The notes under the pieces were generated by a model. It saw only the letters and a list, made by a program, of their open reading frames with translations, made no database searches and was not told where the DNA came from. A DNA stretch of 60,537 bases from Escherichia coli (GTDB taxonomy: Bacteria > Pseudomonadota > Gammaproteobacteria > Enterobacterales > Enterobacteriaceae): NCBI RefSeq assembly GCF_003334255.1, contig NZ_QOWU01000027.1. One strand, written 5' to 3'. A program made the translations under genes and the position numbers. The number at the start of each line of letters is the position of its first letter. Within the stretch, counting starts at the first letter, position 1. This document shows positions 1 through 13,182 of this stretch, piece after piece.

Positions 1-2351
1 AGTTATCGTGAGAGTAATTCATCGGCACGTTAAATCATATCAGGCGTAATACCACAACCCTTAAGTTAGCGCTTATGAGTAGTCTCCCCTCCCTGGCTTT
101 CGAAAAAGAAAAAATCGCCGATTCCGGTGCTGGATTTAGCGCCATTAGGCATTGAGCCAATCTGTTATCTGACAGAAGAAATCAGTAATCAACTTTTGGC
201 GAAATATATCTGGTATTCAAAACACATCACGGTTAGCCATGAAGAAAGTACTACCAACCTGTTGGCAAGGATGGGTTTTCAACGACGGATCGCTGGTACA
301 TATATTAAAGCTCCCGAAGCGGTAGTTGAGGCATGGCTAAATGAAGATTATTCAACCTTACTAAGTGAATTTAAGGTGTTTCATTCACCTACCGGGCATT
401 ATTGGCAGTTGGGGATTTTGACAACATTGCCGCTGGAGAAAGCAGTAAAAGCATGGAATGCCCTTACCCTATCTCCACATACCGATACCGAATACTCCAT
501 GTTACATTTTGGACTCAAAGGGTTACCTGGGTTAGTAAACTCACTTGCACGCTATCCACAAGAAGCCTTGCCCATCACGAATTACTTCGCAGCGAGTGAG
601 CTGGCACCTGCCGTCGCCCGCGCCTTCAACAAACTCAAAACCCTACGACAAGACGCCCGTAGCTGGCTGCTAAAATACCCGGAACATGCCATAACCGGCC
701 TGCTACCTGCGGCGCTCGGCAAAGCCGGTGAAGCCCAGGATAACGCCCGCGCTGCCTTGCGTATGCTTACCGAAAACGGTCATCAGCCATTACTGCAAGA
801 AATCGCCCGGCGTTATAACCAGCCGGAAGTAACAGACGCGGTGAACGCTCTGCTTGCGCTCGATCCCTTAGATAATCACCCGACAAAAATCCCCACTCTT
901 CCGGCCTTTTATCAGCCATCGCTCTGGACGCGCCCGGTATTAAAAGCAAACGCCCAATCACTGCCAGATAACGCCCTCCTCCACCTCGGTGAAATGCTCC
1001 GCTTCCCTCAGGAAGAGGCTCTATATCCGGGATTATTGCAGGTGAAAGATGCCTGTACCGCCGACTCACTGGCTGAATTTGCCTGGGATCTGTTTACCGC
1101 CTGGCAGACCGCTGGCGCGCCGTCGAAAGAAAGCTGGGCGTTCACTGCGTTAGGCGTTCTCGGTAACGATGACACCGCCCGCAAACTGACGCCATTAATC
1201 CGCGCCTGGCCTGGCGAATCTCAGCATAAACGTGCCACCGTTGGGTTGGATATTCTCGCTGCTATCGGTAGTGATATCGCCCTGATGCAGCTTAACGGCA
1301 TCGCCCAGAAACTGAAATTCAAAGCATTACAGGAGCGGGCAAAAGAAAAAATTGCCGACATTGCCGAAAGTCGCGAACTCACGGTGGCGGAGCTTGAAGA
1401 TCGGTTAGCACCGGATCTCGGTCTGGATGATAACGGTTCGCTGCTGCTGGATTTCGGCCCACGTCAGTTCACCGTCAGCTTTGATGAAACCTTAAAACCG
1501 TTTGTGCGCGATGCTTCCGGCAGCCGCCTGAAAGACCTGCCCAAACCAAACAAAAGCGATGATGAATCGCGGGCTGATGAGGCGGTTAACCGCTACAAAC
1601 TGCTGAAAAAAGATGCGCGTACCGTCGCCGCCCAGCAGGTGGCAAGGCTTGAATCCGCCATGTGCCTGCGCCGCCGCTGGTCACCAGAAAACTTCCAGCT
1701 CTTCCTGGTTGAGCACCCGATGGTTCGCCACTTAACCCGACGTCTGATTTGGGGCGTTTATAGCGCCGACAACCAGCTACAGGCGTGCTTTAGGGTAGCG
1801 GAAGATAACAGCTACAGCACCGCTGACGATGATCTTTTCACCCTGCCGGAAGGCGATATCTCTCTTGGTATTCCTCACGTTCTGGAAATATCACCGACGG
1901 ATGCTGCCGCCTTTGGTCAGCTTTTGCCGACTACGAACTGCTACCACCGTTCCGTCAGCTTGACCGTAACAGTTACGCCCTGACAGAAGCCGAGCGCAAT
2001 GCCAGCGAATTGATCCGCTGGGCAGGCAGAAAATGCCCGAGTGGTCGGGTAATGGGGCTGGCGAATAAAGGCTGGATAAAGGGCACCCCGCAGGATGCAG
2101 GCTGGATCGGCTGGATGATCAAACCTCTCGGTCGCTGGTCGTTAATCATGGAAATCGATGAAGGCTTTGCGGTAGGCATGTCGCCAGCCGAACTCAGCGC
2201 TGAGCAGCTCTTAAGCAAGCTGTGGCTATGGGAAGGCAAAGCAGAAAGATATGGCTGGGGGAGTAATTCAACACAGGAAGCGCAGTTCTCCGTAATCGAT
2301 GCCATCACCGCCAGCGAGCTAATTAACGATATTGAAGCCCTGTTTGAATAA
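1..2351 (+). pseudogene. molR: molR-like giant DUF4132-family gene, 3' portion, disrupted; window-truncated at 5' end
   Basis: ORF 127..1983 (GTG at 127, frame open back to 79) aligns block-for-block with YehI residues ~440-1150 (GEMLRF, FAWDLFTAWQ, LDFGPRQFTV, RLIWGVY). The homologous reading continues in another frame as ORF 2010..2351 (FADYELLPPFRQL...). The frame switch maps to a T-run at 1922-1925. Stops in all three frames within 1..78. Confidence 0.8.
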
Positions 2352-2360
2352 GGAAAGAGC

Positions 2361-5300
2361 ATGGACAAGGAATTACCGTGGCTGGCGGATAACGCCCAAC
2401 TGGAACTGAAATATAAAAAAGGCAAAACGCCGCTCAGTCATCGTCGCTGGCCGGGCGAACCAGTGTCCGTTATCACTGGAAGTCTCATCCAGACATTGGG
2501 TGATGAATTGCTACAAAAAGCTGAGAAGAAAAAAAACATTGTCTGGCGTTATGAGAATTTTTCACTGGAGTGGCAGTCCGCCATCACGCAGGCCATCAAC
2601 TTGATCGGCGAACACAAACCCTCAATCCCGGCCCGGACAATGGCGGCGCTAGCCTGTATCGCGCAAAATGACAGCCAACAGTTGCTCGACGAAATCGTCC
2701 AACAAGAGGGGCTGGAATATGCGACTGAGGTGGTGATTGCACGCCAGTTTATTGCGCGGTGTTATGAGAGTGATCCTCTGGTAGTGACATTGCAGTATCA
2801 GGACGAGGATTATGGCTATGGTTATCGCTCAGAAACCTATAACGAATTCGATCTCCGACTGCGTAAGCATCTCTCTCTGGCAGAGGAAAGCTGCTGGCAG
2901 CGTTGCGCCGACAAACTCATTGCCGCACTACCAGGAATAACCAAAGTTCGCCGCCCTTTTATTGCGCTGATCCTCCCGGAAAAACCAGAAATAGCCAATG
3001 AGTTGGTAGGCCTTGAATGCCCGCGAACTCATTTTCATTCTAAGGAGTGGTTAAAAGTTGTTGCTAATGACCCCACAGCGGTGAGAAAACTCGAACACTA
3101 CTGGAGCCAGGATATATTTAGCGATCGAGAAGCCAGCTACATGTCGCATGAAAACCACTTCGGCTACGCGGCCTGCGCCGCCCTTTTGCGCGAACAAGGA
3201 CTGGCAGCCATTCCGCGCCTCGCGATGTATGCCCATAAAGAAGATTGCGGCAGTCTGCTGGTACAAATTAACCATCCGCAAGTCATCCGCACCTTGCTAC
3301 TGGTGGCTGATAAAAACAAACCCAGCCTGCAACGTGTGGCTAAATACAGTAAAAACTTCCCCCATGCGACGCTCGCCGCACTGGCAGAACTGCTGGCGTT
3401 AACAGAACCACCAGCCCGCCCTGGTTATCCAATCATCGAAGACAAAAAGCTGCCTGCACAGCAAAAAGCACGCGATGAATACTGGCGTACGCTGTTACAA
3501 ACGCTGATGGCATCGCAGCCACAACTGGCAGCAGAAGTGATGCCGTGGTTAAGTACTCAACCCCAGTCAGTGCTGAAGAGTTATTTATCGGCACCGCCCA
3601 AACCGGTTATTGATGGCACCGATAACAGCAATCTGCCAGAAATCCTCGTTTCACCACCGTGGCGTAGTAAGAAAAAAATGACAGCTCCACGTCTTGATTT
3701 GGCACCGCTCGAATTAACTCCGCAAGTTTACTGGCAACCAGGCGAACAAGAGAGGCTTGCCGCCACTGAGCCTGCCCGTTATTTCAGCACGGAATCTCTT
3801 GCGCAACGCATGGAACAAAAAAGTGGACGAGTTGTATTACAGGAACTGGGTTTTGGGGATGATGTATGGCTGTTTCTGAATTATATACTCCCCGGAAAAC
3901 TGGATGCTGCACGCAATTCACTCATTGTTCAGTGGCATTACTACCAGGGGCGGGTTGAAGAGATCCTGAATGGCTGGAACTCCCCGGAAGCACAATTAGC
4001 AGAACAGGCGCTCCGCAGCGGTCACATAGAAGCGTTAATTAACATATGGGAAAATGACAACTACTCACGTTATCGTCCGGAAAAGAGTGTCTGGAACCTG
4101 TATTTATTGGCACAGTTGCCGCGTGAGATGGCTTTGACCTTCTGGCTGCGTATCAATGAGAAAAAGCATCTGTTCGCGGGTGAGGACTATTTTCTCAGTA
4201 TCCTCGGATTGGATGCGCTACCAGGTCTGCTGTTGGCTTTTTCACATCGTCCAAAAGAAACATTTCCGTTAATTTTAAATTTCGGCGCAACAGAACTGGC
4301 CCTGCCCGTTGCCCGCGTCTGGCACCGTTTTGCGGGCCAGCGTAATCTGGCTCGCCAGTGGATTTTACAATGGCCGGAACATACGGCTACTGCACTTATT
4401 CCACTCGTCTTTGTTAAACCCTGCGACAACAGCGAAGCGGCATTATTTGCCCTTCGTTTACTGTATGAACAAGGACATAGTGAATTACTGCAAACGGTTG
4501 CAAACCGCTGGGATCGCGCTGATATGTGGCCAGCCCTGGAAAAAATACTTACCCAGAACCCGATGGAAATTTACCCGGCACGCATTCCAAAAGCCCCTGA
4601 TTTCTGGCATCCGCAAATGTGGTCCAGGCCGCGCCTTATCACTAATAATCAAACTGTTACCAATGACGCTCTGGAAATTATCGGCGAAATGCTGCGCTTT
4701 ACCCAGGGGGGACGTTTTTATAGCGGGCTGGAACAACTGAAAACGTTCTGCCAGCCACAAACGCTGGCAGCTTTTGCCTGGGATCTCTTCACTGCGTGGC
4801 AACAAGCTGGTGCCCCCGCAAAAGACAACTGGGCATTTCTGGCGTTAAGTCTCTTTGGTGACGAAAGCACGGCACGGGATCTGACGACACAGATCCTCGC
4901 CTGGCCACAAGAAGGCAAATCTGCCCGTGCTGTCAGCGGCCTGAACATCCTTACCCTGATGAATAATGATATGGCGCTGATACAGCTGCATCATATATCG
5001 CAACGGGCTAAATCCCGCCCCTTACGTGATAACGCGGCGGAATTTCTTCAGGTGGTCGCAGAAAATCGCGGGCTAAGCCAGGAAGAGCTAGCGGACAGAT
5101 TAGTCCCAACCCTGGGCCTTGATGATCCGCAGGCGTTGAGTTTTGATTTTGGTCCCCGGCAGTTTACCGTTCGCTTCGATGAAAATCTCAACCCGGTTAT
5201 CTTTGATCAGCAAAACGTTCGCCAGAAAAGCGTTCCCCGTTTGCGCGCCGATGACGATCAACTGAAAGCGCCCGAGGCACTGGCCCGACTAAAAGGGCTA

Positions 5301-5993
5301 AAAAAAGATGCTACTCAGGTGAGCAAAAACCTGCTCCCGCGTCTTGAAACGGCCCTACGTACCACCCGACGCTGGTCGCTGGCAGATTTTCATTCTCTGT
5401 TTGTTAATCATCCCTTTACCCGTCTGGTTACCCAGCGATTAATATGGGGGGTTTATCCGGCAAATGAACCGCGTTGTTTACTCAAAGCCTTTCGTGTGGC
5501 CGCAGAGGGGGAGTTCTGCAATGCGCAAGATGAGCCAATTGACCTGCCTGCGGACGCTCTGATTGGCATTGCCCACCCGTTAGAAATGACAGCAGAAATG
5601 CGCAGTGAATTTGCACAGCTTTTTGCCGATTACGAAATTATGCCGCCTTTTCGCCAGTTGTCGCGCCGCACGGTGCTGCTCACACCTGACGAGTCAACCA
5701 GTAACAGCCTGACTCGCTGGGAAGGTAAATCCGCTACCGTTGGGCAACTTATGGGAATGCGATACAAAGGCTGGGAGTCAGGCTATGAGGACGCATTTGT
5801 CTATAACCTGGGTGAGTACCGGCTGGTCCTTAAGTTTTCACCCGGTTTTAACCACTACAATGTTGATAGCAAAGCGCTAATGAGCTTCCGTTCTCTTCGA
5901 GTGTACCGTGACAATAAATCCGTCACTTTTGCCGAACTTGATGTGTTTGATTTGAGTGAGGCGTTAAGCGCACCTGACGTCATTTTCCATTAA
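2361..5993 (+). CDS. yehI: YehI, large DUF4132-family protein of unknown function (1210 aa)
   Basis: Single ORF of 1210 aa; ATG at 2361 preceded by AAGGAAAGAG; C-terminal ~700 aa paralogous to the molR fragment upstream. Confidence 0.93.
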   Translation: MDKELPWLADNAQLELKYKKGKTPLSHRRWPGEPVSVITGSLIQTLGDELLQKAEKKKNIVWRYENFSLEWQSAITQAINLIGEHKPSIPARTMAALACIAQNDSQQLLDEIVQQEGLEYATEVVIARQFIARCYESDPLVVTLQYQDEDYGYGYRSETYNEFDLRLRKHLSLAEESCWQRCADKLIAALPGITKVRRPFIALILPEKPEIANELVGLECPRTHFHSKEWLKVVANDPTAVRKLEHYWSQDIFSDREASYMSHENHFGYAACAALLREQGLAAIPRLAMYAHKEDCGSLLVQINHPQVIRTLLLVADKNKPSLQRVAKYSKNFPHATLAALAELLALTEPPARPGYPIIEDKKLPAQQKARDEYWRTLLQTLMASQPQLAAEVMPWLSTQPQSVLKSYLSAPPKPVIDGTDNSNLPEILVSPPWRSKKKMTAPRLDLAPLELTPQVYWQPGEQERLAATEPARYFSTESLAQRMEQKSGRVVLQELGFGDDVWLFLNYILPGKLDAARNSLIVQWHYYQGRVEEILNGWNSPEAQLAEQALRSGHIEALINIWENDNYSRYRPEKSVWNLYLLAQLPREMALTFWLRINEKKHLFAGEDYFLSILGLDALPGLLLAFSHRPKETFPLILNFGATELALPVARVWHRFAGQRNLARQWILQWPEHTATALIPLVFVKPCDNSEAALFALRLLYEQGHSELLQTVANRWDRADMWPALEKILTQNPMEIYPARIPKAPDFWHPQMWSRPRLITNNQTVTNDALEIIGEMLRFTQGGRFYSGLEQLKTFCQPQTLAAFAWDLFTAWQQAGAPAKDNWAFLALSLFGDESTARDLTTQILAWPQEGKSARAVSGLNILTLMNNDMALIQLHHISQRAKSRPLRDNAAEFLQVVAENRGLSQEELADRLVPTLGLDDPQALSFDFGPRQFTVRFDENLNPVIFDQQNVRQKSVPRLRADDDQLKAPEALARLKGLKKDATQVSKNLLPRLETALRTTRRWSLADFHSLFVNHPFTRLVTQRLIWGVYPANEPRCLLKAFRVAAEGEFCNAQDEPIDLPADALIGIAHPLEMTAEMRSEFAQLFADYEIMPPFRQLSRRTVLLTPDESTSNSLTRWEGKSATVGQLMGMRYKGWESGYEDAFVYNLGEYRLVLKFSPGFNHYNVDSKALMSFRSLRVYRDNKSVTFAELDVFDLSEALSAPDVIFH

Positions 5994-6053
5994 AACACAG
6001 CGGGCAGTGATGCAACTGCCCGTTATCAACACGACTTACCAGCGGGGAAAGCG

Positions 6054-6371
6054 ATGATCGTGCAAAAAGAGCTGGTTGCTATTTACGATTATGAGGTCCC
6101 TGTACCTGAAGATCCGTTTTCCTTCAGACTTGAGATCCATAAATGCTCTGAATTATTTACAGGTTCCGTCTATCGACTGGAGCGATTCCGGCTACGTCCA
6201 ACATTTCATCAACGTGATCGAGAAGATGCTGACCCGCTAATAAATGATGCGTTGATTTATATAAGAGATGAGTGTATTGATGAGCGGAAATTACGAGGTG
6301 AATCACCTGAAACTGTAATAGCAATTTTTAATCGTGAACTACAGAATATATTCAACCAAGAAATAGAATAA
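6054..6371 (+). CDS. yehK: YehK, small protein of unknown function (105 aa)
   Basis: ORF 6054..6371; GGGGAAAG upstream of ATG; length matches E. coli YehK. Confidence 0.85.
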   Translation: MIVQKELVAIYDYEVPVPEDPFSFRLEIHKCSELFTGSVYRLERFRLRPTFHQRDREDADPLINDALIYIRDECIDERKLRGESPETVIAIFNRELQNIFNQEIE

Positions 6372-6540
6372 TATACTCTAAATAATTCAAATTGGTCCGA
6401 TCCGGCGCAACGTCCCAATGGCCTGGATTATAAATCTCATTATCTTAATTGCAACGGGGTCCAGCCGTGGTTATAATTCGTTCGTTGGAACACGATGTTG
6501 CACAGGCTGTGGTGTTAGGCCTGAAAATAGTAAATAAAAG

Positions 6541-6572
6541 AACCTGCCTCACCAGCAGGTTTTTTTATTTAC
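6541..6572 (+). terminator. Rho-independent terminator (hairpin ACCTGC-CTCACCA-GCAGGT followed by T7)
   Basis: Perfect 6-bp GC-rich stem, 7-nt loop, then TTTTTTTATTT on the + strand, about 170 bp downstream of the yehK stop. Confidence 0.8.
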
Positions 6573-6677: not shown

Positions 6678-7766
6678 ATGTCACCGCAGAATAATCATCT
6701 GCAGCGTCCGCCTGCTGCTGTGTTATACGCCGATGAACTGGCAAAATTAAAACAAAATGATAACGCACCTTGCCCGCCCGGTTGGCAGTTAAGTTTGCCT
6801 GCGGCCCGTGCTTTTATCCTTGGCGACGAAGCGCAAAATATCAGCCGTAAAGTGGTGATTAGCCCCTCCGCTGTCGAACGTATGTTAGTCACTCTTGCTA
6901 CCGGCCGCGGTTTGATGTTGGTGGGGGAACCGGGTACCGCAAAATCTCTTCTTTCTGAATTACTGGCAACCGCTATTAGCGGCGATGCCGGGTTAACCAT
7001 CCAGGGCGGGGCATCTACCACCGAAGATCAAATCAAGTATGGCTGGAACTACGCCCTGCTTATCAATCATGGTCCGTCAACGGAAGCGCTGGTCCCTGCC
7101 CCGCTTTATCAGGGAATGCGCGACGGCAAAATCGTCCGTTTCGAAGAGATAACGCGTACACCGCTGGAAGTGCAGGACTGTCTGTTAGGTATGCTTTCTG
7201 ACAGGGTGATGACGGTGCCGGAACTCACTGGTGAAGCCAGTCAGCTCTATGCGCGAGAAGGCTTTAATATTATTGCCACTGCCAATACCCGCGATCGCGG
7301 CGTCAATGAAATGAGTGCTGCGCTAAAGCGTCGCTTCGATTTTGAAACGGTTTTTCCGATTATGGATTTCGCCCAGGAGTTGGAACTGGTCGCCAGTGCT
7401 TCGGCGCGTTTGCTGGCCCATAGCGGTATTCCGCATAAAGTGCCTGACGCGGTACTGGAATTACTGGTCCGCACCTTCCGCGATCTGCGTGCCAACGGCG
7501 AAAAGAAAACGTCAATGGATACACTGACAGCGATTATGTCCACCGCTGAAGCCGTGAACGTGGCCCATGCTGTGGGCGTCCGCGCCTGGTTTTTAGCGAA
7601 TCGCGCGGGGGAGCCTGCCGACCTGGTGGAATGTATTGCCGGAACCATCGTCAAAGATAACGAAGAAGATCGCGCGCGTCTGCGCCGTTACTTCGAACAG
7701 CGTGTCGCCACACATAAAGAAGCTCACTGGCAGGCTTATTATCAAGCCCGCCACCGCCTGCCGTGA
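6678..7766 (+). CDS. yehL: YehL, MoxR/AAA_5-type AAA+ ATPase (362 aa)
   Basis: ORF track 6612..7766; start placed at ATG 6678 (MSPQNNH) to give the 362-aa length. Walker A GEPGTAKS at ~6925-6948; Walker B-like VRFEEITR; stop TGA at 7764-7766. Confidence 0.9.
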   Translation: MSPQNNHLQRPPAAVLYADELAKLKQNDNAPCPPGWQLSLPAARAFILGDEAQNISRKVVISPSAVERMLVTLATGRGLMLVGEPGTAKSLLSELLATAISGDAGLTIQGGASTTEDQIKYGWNYALLINHGPSTEALVPAPLYQGMRDGKIVRFEEITRTPLEVQDCLLGMLSDRVMTVPELTGEASQLYAREGFNIIATANTRDRGVNEMSAALKRRFDFETVFPIMDFAQELELVASASARLLAHSGIPHKVPDAVLELLVRTFRDLRANGEKKTSMDTLTAIMSTAEAVNVAHAVGVRAWFLANRAGEPADLVECIAGTIVKDNEEDRARLRRYFEQRVATHKEAHWQAYYQARHRLP

Positions 7767-7776
7767 GGAAAGATGC

Positions 7777-10056
7777 ATGAGCGAGCCGTTAATTGTCGGC
7801 ATCCGGCATCATAGTCCGGCCTGCGCCCGGCTGGTGAAATCGTTAATCGAAAGCCAGCGGCCACGATACGTGTTGATTGAAGGCCCGGCTGATTTTAATG
7901 ACCGGGTAGACGAACTGTTTTTAGCCCACCAGCTTCCGGTAGCTATTTACAGTTATTGCCAGTATCAGGACGGTGCAGCCCCCGGGCGTGGTGCCTGGAC
8001 GCCATTTGCTGAATTTTCGCCGGAGTGGCAGGCGCTACAAGCCGCACGTCGCATTCAGGCACAAACTTACTTCATCGATTTGCCTTGCTGGGCGCAGAGT
8101 GAAGAAGAGGACGATTCGCCTGATACGCAAGATGAAAGCCAGGCCTTACTGCTGCGTGCCACCCGCATGGATAACAGCGATACCCTGTGGGATCACTTGT
8201 TCGAAGATGAAAGCCAGCAAACTGCATTACCCTCTGCGCTGGCGCACTATTTTGCCCAACTGCGGGGCGACGCCTCCGGCGATGCGCTCAATCGTCAGCG
8301 CGAAGCCTTTATGGCCCGCTGGATTGGATGGGCGATGCAGCAAAATAATGGCGACGTGTTAGTTGTCTGCGGTGGCTGGCACGCTCCGGCACTGGCAAAG
8401 ATGTGGCGCGAATGCCCTCAGAAAATTAACAAGCCAGAATTGCCCTCGCTGGCAGATGCCGTTACAGGTTGTTATCTCACACCCTACAGTGAAAAGCGCC
8501 TTGATGTGCTGGCAGGATACCTTTCAGGAATGCCTGCCCCGGTATGGCAAAACTGGTGCTGGCAGTGGGGCTTGCAGAAGGCCGGTGAACAACTGCTAAA
8601 AACTATCCTTACCCGTTTGCGCCAGCACAAATTGCCCGCTTCTACCGCGGATATGGCTGCCGCTCATCTGCATGCGATGGCGCTGGCACAGTTGCGCGGT
8701 CATACACTACCGTTACGCACTGACTGGCTGGATGCCATAGCAGGCTCGCTGATTAAAGAAGCCCTGAACGCGCCGTTGCCGTGGAGCTATCGCGGCGTTA
8801 TTCATCCCGATACCGATCCGATTCTGCTAACGTTGATAGACACATTAGCGGGTGACGGATTCGGTAAACTTGCCCCTTCTACGCCACAACCGCCTCTGCC
8901 AAAAGATGTCACCTGCGAACTGGAACGTACCGCAATCTCCCTTCCGGCGGAGCTTACCTTAAATCGCTTTACCCCCGATGGGCTGGCGCAAAGTCAGGTG
9001 TTACATCGGCTGGCAATACTGGAGATCCCTGGGATTGTACGCCAGCAGGGAAGTACACTGACACTTGCAGGCAACGGTGAAGAACGCTGGAAATTAACCC
9101 ACCCGCTTAGCCAGCATGCGGCATTGATTGAGGCCGCCTGCTTTGGCGCCACGCTCCAGGAAGCCGCACGCAATAAATTAGAAGCCGATATGCTGGACGC
9201 GGGTGGAATCGGCTGCATCACCGCATGTCTTAGCCAGGCGGCGTTAGCGAGTCTGGCGTCCTTCAGTCAACAATTACTGAAGCAACTCACGTTATTAATC
9301 GCCCAGGAAAATCAATTTGCCGAAATGGGCCCGGCGCTGGAAGTGCTATATGCCTTATGGCGGCTGGATGAAATTAGCGGTATGCAAGGTGCGCAGATAT
9401 TACAAACGACGTTATGCGCGGCTATCGATCGCACGCTGTGGCTGTGTGAATCCAACGGCAGACCGGATGAAAAGGAGTTTCACGCTCACCTGCATAGCTG
9501 GCAAGCGTTGTGCCATATTCTGCGCGATCTGCATAGCGGCGTTAATTTACCCGGCGTTTCTCTTTCTGCGGCGGTAGCCTTACTGGAGCGACGCAGTCAG
9601 GCGATTCATGCCCCGGCGCTGGATCGCGGCGCGACTCTTGGTGCGCTGATGCGTCTGGAACATCCCAACGCCAGTGCCGAAGCGGCGCTGACAATGCTGG
9701 CGCAGTTATCCCCGGCACAATCCGGCGAGGCGCTGCACGGTTTGCTGGCATTAGCCCGTCATCAACTGGCCTGTCAGCCGGCATTTATCGCCGGTTTCAG
9801 CAGTCATTTAAATCAACTAAGTGATGCCGATTTTACCAATGCCCTGCCCGATTTACGCGCGGCAATGGCCTGGCTACCGCCACGAGAACGCGGGACGCTG
9901 GCGCATCAGGTGCTTGAGCATTATCAACTGGCGCAACTTCCCGTTTCGGCACTGCAAATGCCGTTGCATTGTCCACCGCAAGCCATTGCACATCATCAAC
10001 AACTCGAACAGCAGGCACTGGCATCGCTGCAACACTGGGGAGTTTTCCATGTCTGA
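7777..10056 (+). CDS. yehM: YehM, protein of unknown function (759 aa)
   Basis: ORF track 7636..10056; start ATG 7777 (MSEPLIVGIRHH), 10 nt after the yehL stop, preceded by GAGGAAAG. Confidence 0.88.
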   Translation: MSEPLIVGIRHHSPACARLVKSLIESQRPRYVLIEGPADFNDRVDELFLAHQLPVAIYSYCQYQDGAAPGRGAWTPFAEFSPEWQALQAARRIQAQTYFIDLPCWAQSEEEDDSPDTQDESQALLLRATRMDNSDTLWDHLFEDESQQTALPSALAHYFAQLRGDASGDALNRQREAFMARWIGWAMQQNNGDVLVVCGGWHAPALAKMWRECPQKINKPELPSLADAVTGCYLTPYSEKRLDVLAGYLSGMPAPVWQNWCWQWGLQKAGEQLLKTILTRLRQHKLPASTADMAAAHLHAMALAQLRGHTLPLRTDWLDAIAGSLIKEALNAPLPWSYRGVIHPDTDPILLTLIDTLAGDGFGKLAPSTPQPPLPKDVTCELERTAISLPAELTLNRFTPDGLAQSQVLHRLAILEIPGIVRQQGSTLTLAGNGEERWKLTHPLSQHAALIEAACFGATLQEAARNKLEADMLDAGGIGCITACLSQAALASLASFSQQLLKQLTLLIAQENQFAEMGPALEVLYALWRLDEISGMQGAQILQTTLCAAIDRTLWLCESNGRPDEKEFHAHLHSWQALCHILRDLHSGVNLPGVSLSAAVALLERRSQAIHAPALDRGATLGALMRLEHPNASAEAALTMLAQLSPAQSGEALHGLLALARHQLACQPAFIAGFSSHLNQLSDADFTNALPDLRAAMAWLPPRERGTLAHQVLEHYQLAQLPVSALQMPLHCPPQAIAHHQQLEQQALASLQHWGVFHV

Positions 10057-11185
10057 ACTGAACGATCTTCTGACCACCCGTGAGCTACAACGCTGGCGAT
10101 TAATTCTTGGCGAAGCGGCAGAAACGACGCTTTGTGGGCTGGATGACAACGCCCGGCAGATAGACCACGCGCTGGAGTGGCTGTATGGGCGCGATCCTGA
10201 ACGGCTCCAGCGTGGTGAACGCTCCGGTGGATTAGGTGGCTCAAATCTCACCACCCCTGAGTGGATCAACAGTATTCACACGCTGTTTCCGCAACAGGTG
10301 ATTGAGCGGCTGGAAAGCGATGCCGTACTGCGCTACGGCATTGAAGATGTGGTGACAAATCTCGACGTGCTGGAACGTATGCAGCCTTCCGAAAGCCTGC
10401 TACGCGCCGTTTTGCACACCAAACATCTGATGAATCCCGAAGTACTGGCTGCCGCCCGCCAGATAGTGCGCCAGGTTGTTGAAGAAATTATGGCGCGACT
10501 GGCAAAGGAAGTTCGCCAGGCTTTTTCTGGTGTCCGCGATCGCCGTCGCCGTTCATTTGTTCCACTGGCGCGAAACTTTGATTTCAAAAGTACTCTGCGC
10601 GCCAACCTGCAACACTGGCACCCGCAACACGGCAAGTTGTATATCGAATCCCCCCGCTTTAACAGCCGCATTAAACGCCAAAGCGAACAATGGCAACTGG
10701 TCTTACTGGTTGATCAAAGCGGCTCGATGGTCGATTCGGTGATCCACTCTGCGGTGATGGCGGCCTGTTTGTGGCAGTTACCCGGCATTCGTACCCATCT
10801 GGTGGCGTTTGACACAAGCGTCGTTGATCTCACGGCAGACGTTGCCGATCCGATAGAGTTATTAATGAAAGTGCAATTAGGCGGCGGAACCAATATCGCC
10901 AGTGCCATGGAGTATGGTCGGCAACTTATTGAACAACCTGAAAAAAGCGTCATTATCCTAGTGAGCGATTTTTATGAAGGGGGTTCATCATCATTGCTGA
11001 CGCATCAGGTGAAAAAGTGTGTCCAGAGCGGCATCAAAGTGCTGGGACTGGCAGCGCTCGATAGCACAGCAACGCCTTGCTATGACCGCGATACGGCCCA
11101 GGCGCTGGTTAATGTCGGCGCACAAATAGCCGCCATGACACCGGGCGAGCTGGCATCATGGCTTGCGGAGAATCTTCAGTCATGA
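10049..11185 (+). CDS. yehP: YehP, von Willebrand factor A (VWA, CoxE-like) protein with complete MIDAS motif (378 aa)
   Basis: ORF track 9821..11185; start ATG 10049 (MSELNDLL) overlaps the yehM stop by 8 nt. MIDAS D-x-S-x-S (LVDQSGSM) at ~10711-10728, plus downstream T and D residues. Confidence 0.88.
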   Translation: MSELNDLLTTRELQRWRLILGEAAETTLCGLDDNARQIDHALEWLYGRDPERLQRGERSGGLGGSNLTTPEWINSIHTLFPQQVIERLESDAVLRYGIEDVVTNLDVLERMQPSESLLRAVLHTKHLMNPEVLAAARQIVRQVVEEIMARLAKEVRQAFSGVRDRRRRSFVPLARNFDFKSTLRANLQHWHPQHGKLYIESPRFNSRIKRQSEQWQLVLLVDQSGSMVDSVIHSAVMAACLWQLPGIRTHLVAFDTSVVDLTADVADPIELLMKVQLGGGTNIASAMEYGRQLIEQPEKSVIILVSDFYEGGSSSLLTHQVKKCVQSGIKVLGLAALDSTATPCYDRDTAQALVNVGAQIAAMTPGELASWLAENLQS

Positions 11186-13182
11186 ATTCACTACGTCCGG
11201 AATTATTAGAACTGACACCGCAGGCACTGACGGCGTTAAGCAATGCCGGTTTTGTTAAGCGCAGTCTTAAGGAACTGGAAAATGGCAACGTCCCGGAAAT
11301 CAGCCATGAGAACGGCGCTTTAATCGCCACCTTCAGTGACGGTGTCCATACCCAGCTGGCGAACGGCCAGGCACTGAAAGAGGCTCAGTGCACCTGTGGG
11401 GCCAGCGGCATGTGCCGTCATCGCGTGATGCTGGTGTTAAGTTATCAACGACTTTGTGCTACCGCCCAGCCTACGGGAAAAGAAGAGGAATGGGATCCGG
11501 CAATCTGGCTGGAAGAACTGGCTACCCTTCCCGATGCCACCCGCAAACGCGCACAGGTATTGGTCGCTAAAGGCATCACCATTGAGTTGTTATGTGCGCC
11601 GGGTGAAATTCCCTCTGCCCGCTTACCGATGAGCGATGTGCGTTTTTATTCCCGCAGCAGTATTCGTTTCGCCCGTTGTGATTGTATTGAAGGCACACTT
11701 TGCGAACATGTCGTACTGGCTGTGCAGGCCTTCGTCGAGGCCAAAGCGCAGCAAGCGGAATTTACTCATTTAATCTGGCAGATGCGCAGCGAACACGTCA
11801 CATCATCTGACGATCCGTTTGCCAGCGAAGAGGGCAACGCGTGTCGTCAATATGTTCAGCAATTAAGCCAGACATTATGGCTTGGCGGCATCAGCCAGCC
11901 GCTTATTCACTACGAGGCAGCATTCAACCGCGCATTGCAGGCGGCAGAGACCTGCAACTGGCGCTGGGTGAGTGAATCGCTACGGCAACTGCGCGCCAGC
12001 GTTGATGCCTTCCACGCCCGCGCCAGCCACTATAATGCCGGAGAATGCTTACATCAGCTTGCGGCATTAAACAGTCGATTAAATTGCGCACAAGAGATGG
12101 CCCGGCGCGACAGTATTGGTGAAGTTCCTCCTGTGCCGTGGCGCACGGTCGTTGGCTCTGGCATTGCCGGAGAAGCAAAGCTTGATCATCTGCGGCTGGT
12201 GTCTTTAGGTATGCGTTGCTGGCAGGATATTGAGCATTATGGTTTACGCATCTGGTTTACCGATCCCGACACCGGCAGTATTTTGCACCTTTCGCGCAGT
12301 TGGCCGCGAAGTGAACAGGAAAACTCACCGGCAGCTACGCGTCGGCTGTTTAGTTTTCAGGCTGGCGCACTGGCGGGCGGGCAAATTGTTTCACAAGCAG
12401 CAAAACGCAGTGCCGATGGCGAGCTGCTGTTAGCTACCCGCAACCGCTTAAGCAGCGTTGTGCCGCTGTCGCCTGATGCCTGGCAAATGTTGAGCGCGCC
12501 GTTACGCCAGCCGGGCATTGTGGCTTTGCGGGAATATTTACGCCAGCGTCCCCCCGCCTGCATACGGCCTCTTAATCAGGTCGATAACTTATTTATTCTG
12601 CCGGTCGCTGAGTGTATTTCGCTCGGTTGGGATAGCAGCCGCCAGACGCTGGATGCGCAGGTAATCAGCGGCGAAGGTGAAGATAATCTGCTGACGTTAT
12701 CACTGCCAGCCTCAGCCAGCGCGCCTTATGCCGTTGAACGCATGGCGGCGCTTTTGCAACAAACAGACGACCCCGTGTGTCTGGTTTCTGGCTTTGTCAG
12801 TTTTGTTGATGGGCAATTGACACTGGAACCACAGGTAATTATGACAAAGACTCGTGCCTGGGCGCTGGACGCTGAAACTGCGCCTGTGGCACCACTACCT
12901 TCTGCCAGCGTTTTGCCTGTGCCGTCTACTGCTCATCAGTTGCTGATGCGCTGCCAGGCGTTACTTATTCAACTGCTCCATAACGGCTGGCGCTATCAGG
13001 AACAGAGCGCTATTAGTCAGGCAGAGTTGCTGGCGAATGACCTCACCGCGGTGGGTTTTTATCGGCTGGCACATGTGTTGGGGCAATTTCGTAATACAGA
13101 AAGCGAGGCACGGGTAGAAGCAATAAATAACGGTGTTTTGCTTTGCGAACAATTATTCCCCATGCTTCAGCAACAAGGATGA
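11182..13182 (+). CDS. yehQ: YehQ, protein with two SWIM-type zinc-finger motifs (C-x-C-x5-C-x-H)
   Basis: ORF track 11158..13182; start ATG 11182 (MNSLRPELL) overlaps the yehP stop as ATGA. CTCGASGMCRH at ~11389-11421 and CDCIEGTLCEH at ~11677-11710. Exact start is uncertain. Confidence 0.82.
   Translation: MNSLRPELLELTPQALTALSNAGFVKRSLKELENGNVPEISHENGALIATFSDGVHTQLANGQALKEAQCTCGASGMCRHRVMLVLSYQRLCATAQPTGKEEEWDPAIWLEELATLPDATRKRAQVLVAKGITIELLCAPGEIPSARLPMSDVRFYSRSSIRFARCDCIEGTLCEHVVLAVQAFVEAKAQQAEFTHLIWQMRSEHVTSSDDPFASEEGNACRQYVQQLSQTLWLGGISQPLIHYEAAFNRALQAAETCNWRWVSESLRQLRASVDAFHARASHYNAGECLHQLAALNSRLNCAQEMARRDSIGEVPPVPWRTVVGSGIAGEAKLDHLRLVSLGMRCWQDIEHYGLRIWFTDPDTGSILHLSRSWPRSEQENSPAATRRLFSFQAGALAGGQIVSQAAKRSADGELLLATRNRLSSVVPLSPDAWQMLSAPLRQPGIVALREYLRQRPPACIRPLNQVDNLFILPVAECISLGWDSSRQTLDAQVISGEGEDNLLTLSLPASASAPYAVERMAALLQQTDDPVCLVSGFVSFVDGQLTLEPQVIMTKTRAWALDAETAPVAPLPSASVLPVPSTAHQLLMRCQALLIQLLHNGWRYQEQSAISQAELLANDLTAVGFYRLAHVLGQFRNTESEARVEAINNGVLLCEQLFPMLQQQG

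Follow-up and report, generated by a model that had tools for sequence, protein, structure and literature searches.

The analysis concerned the beginning of a 60,537-nucleotide (nt) stretch of an Escherichia coli genome (contig NZ_QOWU01000027.1 of assembly GCF_003334255.1; hereafter, the window), in which the remnant of molR and the intact gene yehI, two giant paralogs of the DUF4132 family, lie upstream of yehK and the yehLMPQ genes. The window was aligned to the chromosome of E. coli G1/2 (NZ_CP060083.1), to which its first 6.4 kb were 100% identical, and the RefSeq annotation was read there. The gene order in G1/2 was metG, the 5' part of molR, the insertion sequence IS421, the 3' part of molR, yehI, yehK, yehL, yehM, yehP, yehQ, and yehR, and the chromosomal site between metG and yehR was constant from Escherichia to Klebsiella. 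As described below, the DUF4132 proteins form, together with YehL, YehM, YehP, and YehQ, a conserved system of five components. The features of the locus are listed in Table 1. A first-pass annotation, made from the letters of the window alone, had assigned positions 1–6371 to molR and yehI; both genes are present there, but the range also takes in the end of IS421 at its left and yehK at its right.

Table 1. Features of the yeh locus in the window (positions are those of the window)
Feature	Position	Strand	Evidence
IS421 (IS4-family) right end interrupting molR	1–77	-	100% matches to IS421 transposase regions, RefSeq annotation, junction sequences
IS421 transposase coding sequence, first 22 nt	1–22	-	
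IS421 terminal inverted repeat CAACCCTTAAGTTAGCGCTTATG	55–77		
11-bp target-site duplication AGTAGTCTCCC (molR nt 1521–1531)	78–88	.	Alignment to intact HS molR
molR (yehH) 3' fragment, pseudogene, codons ~507–1264 of 1264	78–2351	+	Open reading frames, RefSeq flags, HS alignment
molR hypervariable low-GC cassette (molR nt ~1587–1970)	144–527	+	GC content, dN/dS windows, identity matrices, BLAST breakpoints
DUF4132 (PF13569) region of molR remnant, broken by frameshift at 1921/1922	1519–2075	+	Pfam span 988–1173 projected onto window
yehI, intact, 1210 residues, RefSeq WP_047644667.1	2361–5993	+	Uninterrupted open reading frame
YehI predicted alpha-helical solenoid, residues ~40–910, HEAT/ARM-like	2478–5090	+	AlphaFold2 model, weak PDB matches, array identity profile
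YehI DUF4132 domain, residues 954–1138	5220–5774	+	Pfam 4.7e-47
yehK, 105 residues	6054–6371	+	Open reading frame
yehL, predicted MoxR-type AAA+ ATPase	6678–7766	+	RefSeq and K-12 annotation, NCBIfam domain-level matches, synteny
yehM, DUF5682	7777–10056	+	Pfam DUF5682 7.4e-98, synteny
yehP, CoxE-type vWA	10049–11185	+	Pfam VWA_CoxE 1.1e-70, synteny
yehQ, SWIM zinc finger	11182–13182	+	Weak Pfam SWIM matches, RefSeq annotation, synteny

The fragment of molR in the window was read in two frames, 79–1983 (frame 1) and 2010–2351 (frame 3), with open reading frames (ORFs) at 127–1983 and 2010–2351, and it is flagged in RefSeq as frameshifted and lacking its N-terminus. When the intact molR of strain HS was used for comparison, its nt 1–1531 aligned to the left of IS421 and its nt 1521–3795 to the right. 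This overlap identified AGTAGTCTCCC as an 11-bp target duplication, the second copy of which lies 1.3 kb upstream of the window copy, beyond IS421 and outside the window. In addition, one base was missing between positions 1921 and 1922 relative to the HS allele, resulting in a -1 frameshift. The remnant therefore bears two independent lesions, and molR, the paralog that carries a WGR domain, is dead in the present strain. As the first 77 positions belong to IS421, the window carries only molR codons ~507–1264, while the first 510 codons, the WGR domain among them, lie beyond IS421 and outside the window. The IS421 end was also the sole part of the query that matched plasmids and many other chromosomal sites. 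By contrast with molR, yehI is an uninterrupted ORF of 1210 codons whose start codon lies 9 nt past the molR stop, and the initial description of a decayed molR beside an intact yehI was thus borne out.

The molR gene was struck by two different insertion sequences within ~15 bp in unrelated strains, namely, IS421 at nt 1521–1531 in G1/2 and IS1203 at nt 1513–1514 in O111:H8 8E (L077 7681/8993; L numbers here and below denote individual loci). This site, which lies ~55–75 nt upstream of the low-GC cassette of molR, may be an insertion hot spot.

Intact MolR (1264 residues, strain JCH8249) and YehI were aligned over their full length with 447 of 1187 positions identical (38%, E = 0), the start of YehI corresponding to MolR residue ~110. 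The frame-1 translation of the molR fragment matched YehI residues 429–1108 with 37% identity, and since this match was significant under compositional adjustment (E = 6e-139), low complexity was ruled out as an explanation of the similarity. Accordingly, molR and yehI are true paralogs. The long C-terminal homology region read from the window is real, but the homology is not confined to the C-terminus and covers the full length in intact alleles. A third tandem paralog of 1265 residues, with WGR and DUF4132 domains and 43% identity to MolR over 1320 columns, was found upstream in JCH8249 and many other E. coli.

In Pfam searches, MolR matched WGR at residues 7–69 (1.1e-17) and DUF4132 at residues 988–1173 (3e-51), whereas YehI matched DUF4132 alone and had no WGR domain. 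NCBIfam gave only a WGR-level match on MolR, and the family profile matched only WGR-containing chains in the PDB, including the WGR of PARP3 and 2ra8. The molR fragment in the window is devoid of the WGR domain, so the early statement that no DNA-binding motif is apparent holds for the window but not for intact MolR, which begins with a WGR domain encoded upstream of IS421. Neither a helix-turn-helix nor a Mop/TOBE-type molybdate-binding domain was found by Pfam in MolR or YehI, and the doubt cast at the outset on the name molR, for molybdate regulator, was well placed. A role of MolR as a transcriptional regulator of molybdate metabolism is extremely improbable and poorly supported; the historical gene name and the product names copied from it are all that speaks for it, while a solenoid protein of 1264 residues is unlike known regulators, molR has become a pseudogene in many strains, K-12 among them, and its pieces are now named yehF and yehH, without the molR name, in the K-12 record.

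The structure of YehI was modelled using AlphaFold2. The model of residues 11–1210 (pLDDT, the predicted local distance difference test, 86.3; pTM, the predicted template modelling score, 0.80) was a nearly all-helical solenoid up to residue ~903, followed by an alpha/beta region, and the C-terminal 308 residues modelled alone (pLDDT 93.8) formed an alpha/beta module at residues ~903–1210. On comparing the YehI model with the PDB using Foldseek, no match was obtained at E ≤ 1e-3; only weak solenoid matches to karyopherins, the PP2A A subunit, CAND1, and FANCD2/FANCI were returned, with TM-scores of 0.07–0.24, and no enzyme-like fold was found in the structure searches. The model of residues ~40–910 is a continuous alpha-solenoid like those of HEAT/ARM adaptors such as the PP2A A subunit, karyopherins, and CAND1; however, there is no sequence relationship and the matches are weak, and the likeness is one of architecture only. 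Overall, the family architecture is an optional N-terminal WGR domain, an alpha-helical solenoid of ~900 residues, and a conserved alpha/beta DUF4132 module of ~300 residues.

The association of the family with yehLMPQ was determined in both directions. An exhaustive HMMER search with YehI, in which the counts are representatives of 50%-identity clusters, returned 5714 representatives at E ≤ 1e-3 and 2204 at E ≤ 1e-30; the members were mostly 1100–1300 residues long, and their best-conserved stretch corresponded to YehI residues ~545–1142. One genome per species was scanned, which yielded 69 loci spanning Enterobacterales, Burkholderiales, Xanthomonadales, Mycobacteriales, Micromonosporales, Myxococcota, Planctomycetota, Acidobacteriota, and a Collinsella metagenome-assembled genome. 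All ORFs of the loci were translated and searched with iterated profiles of YehI/MolR, YehK, YehL, YehM, YehP, and YehQ. For the forward test, a locus was taken as informative when at least 7.5 kb extended beyond the last DUF4132 core (n = 43). Homologues of YehL, YehM, YehP, and YehQ were all present in 32/43 of these loci, some of them in 2/43, and none in 9/43; six of these nine loci without the module were extra DUF4132 copies in Massilia genomes that also hold linked arrays. The module genes followed the array in an unchanged order and were encoded on the same strand as it, except at two Burkholderia loci (L036 and L039), where YehL-M-P-Q was followed by a single WGR-DUF4132 gene.

For the reverse test, metagenome contigs were scanned with an alignment of YehM homologues whose first sequence came from outside the enterobacteria. 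Among the 80 loci obtained, 29 were too short to judge, and a DUF4132 gene was present at 46 of the 51 informative ones. The loci without a DUF4132 gene held either a complete YehL-M-P-Q set (L082, L092, L115, and L131) or only M, P, and Q (L153). The projected gap between the stop of the last DUF4132 gene and the start of the YehL homologue had a median of 63 nt over 83 loci, and the gene order was common to Pseudomonadota, Actinomycetota, Myxococcota, and Acidobacteriota. The first-pass annotation had suggested that the giant paralogs could work with the downstream module as specificity or sensor components and had proposed that their co-occurrence be examined; in neither direction was an independent distribution seen, and the partnership of the DUF4132 genes with yehLMPQ is strongly supported.

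In the case of the partner proteins, YehL is annotated in K-12 as 'putative AAA(+) MoxR family ATPase YehL', and its NCBIfam matches were at the domain level only (GvpN, MadB, and McrB ATPases) and did not come close to the curated cut-offs (GvpN, 32.9 bits). YehM was covered by DUF5682 across its whole length, YehP matched VWA_CoxE, and YehQ showed weak Pfam SWIM matches at residues 56–88 and 160–183. Homologues of yehK were found only with Escherichia-type arrays (L001–L003 and enterobacterial gut-metagenome loci), and yehK is not a conserved part of the system. The N-terminus of the YehM homologues contained an invariant G-x-R-H-H-S-P-A-C-A-R-L ... V-L-x-E-G-P-x-D motif, and other His, Glu, and Asp residues were likewise invariant; these features suggest that DUF5682 has a site for catalysis or metal binding. 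A Pfam search with 17 members and a PDB profile search gave no fold or family for YehM beyond DUF5682. The motif in YehM, GVRHHSPACA...VLIEGP, may resemble that of TraB/PrgY/Tiki-type hydrolases, a likeness confirmed by neither search.

MoxR/vWA pairs are established remodelling or chaperone pairs and are best known as maturation factors. The yeh system resembles pairs such as CoxD-CoxE, RavA-ViaA, NorQ-NorD, and CbbQ-CbbO in that yehL and yehP lie in one operon with only yehM between them, YehP matches the CoxE-type vWA protein (1.1e-70), and YehL, a predicted MoxR-type AAA+ ATPase, has domain-level matches to MoxR-like ATPases, e.g., GvpN. A chaperone for metalloenzyme maturation or cofactor insertion, as in CoxD/CoxE, NorQ/NorD, and CbbQ/CbbO, would accommodate these likenesses, the DUF4132 proteins being scaffolds or clients and the historical molybdate phenotype a distant reflection of the activity. 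However, the yeh system adds DUF5682, SWIM, and WGR-solenoid-DUF4132 partners, one of which occurs in arrays of up to at least seven copies, and it has no conserved client enzyme gene nearby; no metalloenzyme or cofactor-biosynthesis gene was conserved beside it in the 69 and 80 loci. One to seven or more divergent adaptors, a WGR domain, an SOS box, and frequent pseudogenes would likewise be unexpected for a housekeeping role, and the molR locus that Lee et al. (1990) defined genetically reportedly maps far from the yeh position. A maturation chaperone is thus an improbable reading of the locus.

The number of DUF4132 cores per locus ranged from one to at least seven, and several arrays, e.g., in Massilia, ran past the locus ends. 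In Massilia aquatica, M. frigida, and M. rubra (L010, L020, L031, and L041), up to seven cores were found upstream of a single YehL-M-P-Q module, and the same genomes held orphan DUF4132 copies elsewhere (L011, L033, L035, L037, L038, L045, and L051). The WGR domain was present in nearly all single-copy loci, while in arrays it was present in some copies and absent from others; the order in Escherichia and Klebsiella was two WGR copies followed by a WGR-less copy. Paralogs within arrays were 41–54% identical overall. In arrays of five genera, the twelfth with the WGR domain and the C-terminal third were most alike (0.5–0.75 identity; 0.5–0.73 for the C-terminal third), the solenoid identity was 0.21–0.51, and that of the last twelfth 0.32–0.44, and the invariant residues of the family were concentrated in the last 400 residues. 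The last copy of the Klebsiella array was the ortholog of YehI (55–60%). This orthology and the divergence of the paralogs indicate that the duplications are old and maintained.

The conservation of the locus in E. coli was determined using 5426 complete genomes, with presence counted at ≥80% query coverage. Window positions 1–6400 were covered in 5218 genomes, molR in 4011, and the third paralog in 1630; most genomes below this threshold for the third paralog matched no more of it than its initial 197 nt, the WGR-coding end. This end of the third paralog (L002 3671–3867, ~197 nt) was ~91% identical to the 5' end of molR in two-copy strains, and the remainder was unaligned by megablast. This short similarity is a plausible substrate for unequal crossing-over that would alter the copy number.

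Lesions were surveyed in ten annotated E. coli genomes. Only HS and PEC1012 had fully intact loci, and EcN was impaired in yehK only, by a frameshift. The lesions of the other seven genomes were as follows: molR::IS421 and a frameshift in G1/2; molR::IS1203, a stop, and a yehQ frameshift in O111:H8 8E; two molR lesions and a shorter yehQ in K-12; a third-paralog stop, a molR frameshift and deletion, and a yehM stop in O157:H7; a yehL frameshift and a yehM stop in JCH8249; a deletion from yehI into yehM in strain 405; and a yehI frameshift in APEC 102026. The deletion in strain 405 (L073 13454–13459) removed yehK and yehL and left the initial 2.2 kb of yehI fused to the final 1.5 kb of yehM. 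In K-12 MG1655, yehQ (L072 17101–18945) was annotated with 614 codons against 666–667 elsewhere, and molR was split into yehF and the pseudogene yehH. With its molR pseudogene and short yehQ, K-12 is ill suited to work on the system.

The ratio of nonsynonymous to synonymous substitutions (dN/dS) was calculated pairwise within E. coli by the Nei-Gojobori method, both for whole genes and in 60-codon windows. The values were 0.018 for metG, 0.035 for yehL, 0.068 for yehP, 0.118 for both yehM and yehQ, 0.20 for yehI, 0.24 for yehK, and 0.27 for molR. The last 400 codons of molR and yehI were tightly constrained, with dN/dS of 0.02–0.3. No 60-codon window exceeded 1, the maximum being 0.91 in a nearly invariant window and 0.70 in the molR cassette, and positive selection is accordingly not claimed. 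The description of the locus as duplicated and diversifying was thus only partly sustained. The paralogs are duplicated, though the duplication is old (38–43% identity, with the same three-gene order in Klebsiella); diversification is seen in dN/dS values 6–15 times those of metG, yehL, and yehP and in the two-allele cassette of molR, but not in any window above 1. DUF4132 is the sole component of the system that is multiplied, varied in domain content, and fastest evolving, and yet it retains a constant C-terminal module.

The cassette, which spans molR codons ~530–660 and has sharp boundaries, occurred in two E. coli allele classes that were 58% identical in DNA, between flanks of 94–99% identity. 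The first class was found in EcN and APEC 102026 and the second in HS, K-12, G1/2, and JCH8249; the EcN-class cassette was 88% identical to that of E. whittamii. At molR codons 510–690, dN was 0.2–0.3 and dS 0.44–0.66. The GC content of window positions 1–500 was 0.43, and many genomes aligned to the window only from query positions 539–960 onward. Gene conversion from a paralog was considered and rejected as the origin of the cassette, as it matched neither the third paralog nor yehI but did match the E. whittamii ortholog. These results suggest an old polymorphism kept across species, or recombination.

A LexA box of the form CTG-N10-CAG, AACTGGATAAAATTACAGGG, preceded the molR start by 10 nt in E. 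coli (L001 and L002), outside the window, and a near-identical box was present at the same position in Klebsiella oxytoca (L004). When the 300 nt preceding the array were searched for the pattern at all loci, the conserved site was found only in E. coli and K. oxytoca and was absent, e.g., from Erwinia, Serratia, Variovorax, and Massilia; the pattern matches in Variovorax (L047) and Rhodoferax (L065) were at other positions and had low similarity to the consensus. As the LexA box is limited to Escherichia and Klebsiella, SOS control is not a general property of the system. Moreover, IS421 separates yehI from the SOS promoter in the present strain. The molR gene is listed as LexA-regulated with a known SOS box (PMC6590174), and its promoter is activated by BglJ-RcsB and not repressed by H-NS (PMC3950696), while yehL and yehM are upregulated in hns/stpA mutants (PMC3686432). 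The array and yehLMPQ therefore look like two differently regulated transcription units in E. coli.

The 306-bp spacer between yehK and yehL contained a strong Rfam match to the OrzO-P antitoxin small RNA (sRNA) at window positions 6491–6566 on the + strand (99.9 bits; gathering score 60), with a promoter-like site at 6449–6477 and a hairpin with a T-tract at 6541–6566. No ZorO-like small hydrophobic ORF was found in the spacer, and the match thus looks like an orphan antitoxin sRNA. A zorO-orzO type I toxin-antitoxin locus has been described at the same position in O157:H7 (PMC2887945).

It may be asked whether the adjacency is only historical, molR and yehI being decaying leftovers unconnected with yehLMPQ. 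Such a view could draw on the common pseudogenes at the locus, on the separate regulation of the array and yehLMPQ in K-12, and on the spacer with its unrelated sRNA gene that divides yehK from yehL. Against it stand the gene order kept across four phyla with short gaps, the strong purifying selection on the C-terminal 400 codons of both genes, and the fully intact loci of HS and PEC1012. A purely historical adjacency is therefore very unlikely, and it is poorly supported.

Relations to defence systems and mobile elements were also evaluated. None of the 5027 PADLOC models matched YehI, MolR, the third paralog, YehK, YehL, YehM, YehP, or YehQ, and the locus was thus rejected as a known catalogued defence system. 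The PHROGs families phrog_20839, 36602, 36295, 30700, 33984, 31592, and 29006 were near-identical to YehI, MolR, YehK, YehM, YehP, and YehQ. Nevertheless, no deposited phage genome encodes a relative of YehI, and a phage origin was rejected; the PHROGs families probably come from over-extended prophage predictions that took in chromosomal genes. Plasmid copies were rare (29/72,556 records) and mostly on megaplasmids or chromosome-sized records. A blaCTX-M-15 transposon of ST131 is placed in the same DUF4132 region (PMC9334617).

That the five-gene set provides immunity against phages or mobile elements is possible but on balance unlikely. In such a system, the DUF4132 paralogs would sense invaders, in the manner of STAND/NLR-type repeat sensors, and the MoxR/vWA/SWIM proteins would execute the response. 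Expansion to at least seven tandem copies, the location of a two-allele cassette kept across species in the fastest-evolving component, the variable copy number and the many independent inactivations among E. coli strains, and an SOS induction that would coincide with prophage induction are all consistent with it, as is the type I toxin-antitoxin locus within the E. coli locus (PMC2887945). The absence of PADLOC matches and of phage relatives, the rarity of plasmid copies, the fixed metG-yehR site from Escherichia to Klebsiella, and dN/dS below 1 argue in the other direction, and no recognisable nuclease, protease, TIR, or pore-forming effector was found. The vWA-MoxR ternary conflict systems, reportedly described by comparative genomics, also combine a MoxR ATPase, a vWA protein, and a variable third partner. 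Their N-terminal effector-associated domains were not seen here, and the partners are DUF5682, SWIM, and DUF4132.

The WGR domain provides a further point of comparison. MolR resembles PARP1, PARP2, and PARP3 in its first ~80 residues, which match Pfam WGR, and the family profile matches the WGR of PARP3; unlike these enzymes, MolR has no ADP-ribosyltransferase domain, its WGR is fused to a solenoid and DUF4132, and YehI and many array members have no WGR at all. The WGR domains of PARPs bind DNA breaks (PMC6294510 and PMC8190142). Furthermore, one DUF4132 protein and one WGR protein belong to the DdrO DNA-damage regulon of Deinococcus (PMC8533742). The mentions of DUF4132 in PMC9334617 and PMC8533742 do not come from functional studies of the family.

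As the DUF4132 component is multiplied, variable in domains, and fastest evolving while its C-terminus is constant, the most economical reading of the system is a constant ATP-driven MoxR/vWA engine with exchangeable DUF4132 recognition subunits, to which we assign a probability of roughly 0.55. In such an arrangement, each paralog would attach to the constant ATPase/vWA machine through its conserved C-terminal DUF4132 module, target recognition would fall to the divergent solenoid, in molR with its exchangeable cassette, and the WGR domain, where present, would sense nucleic-acid ends or breaks. Tandem paralogs would then give several alternative specificities to one ATP-driven remodelling engine. 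A physical interaction between the DUF4132 proteins and YehLMPQ would be expected from this arrangement, and a sensor or adaptor function of the DUF4132 proteins is a well-motivated hypothesis given their architecture and synteny. Three clues, namely, the SOS link in enterobacteria, the Deinococcus damage regulon, and the WGR domain, point to an action on damaged or foreign DNA and DNA-bound proteins, which is the most probable field for the arrays of Escherichia and Klebsiella. The link to SOS and DNA damage is lineage-specific, and the biological role of the system is one that we infer.

Several results weigh against an engine with exchangeable recognition subunits. The synteny is not absolute, as the module was lacking nearby at 9/43 DUF4132 loci and 5/51 YehM loci had no DUF4132 gene despite at least 4 kb on each side. 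The conserved LexA site was confined to E. coli and K. oxytoca, and the array and yehLMPQ appear to be regulated apart. YehI, the sole intact paralog in the window, has no WGR domain, and no recognisable effector-type domain was found in any component of the system. At least one gene was inactivated in 7/10 surveyed E. coli genomes (8/10 when the yehK frameshift of EcN is counted), with the broken gene differing by strain. Finally, since no window had dN/dS above 1, the faster evolution could reflect relaxed constraint and not selection for new specificities.

A bolder form of the proposed engine is that the yeh locus is a widespread, hitherto unrecognised surveillance system, in which arrays of diversified WGR-solenoid-DUF4132 proteins would serve as a sensor repertoire for nucleic acid that is damaged or foreign, or for its bound proteins, and would pass these targets to the MoxR/vWA/SWIM/DUF5682 machine. 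We consider this only tentatively and as rather unlikely. If true, this bacterial apparatus, immune-like or guarding the genome, would be of a new class, and E. coli itself would carry it, though often in a broken state.

Each of these genes is already annotated throughout, and what is new is the picture at the level of the system; no publication on the system as a whole or on DUF5682 was found in the searchable literature, in which four papers mention DUF4132. Seven adjacent E. coli genes covering ~17 kb are without known function, and one of them bears a misleading regulator name and is counted in the SOS regulon. With the proposed organisation, this set of y-genes becomes a concrete model of a constant ATPase engine with exchangeable recognition subunits, and HS and PEC1012 have been identified as natural strains with intact loci.

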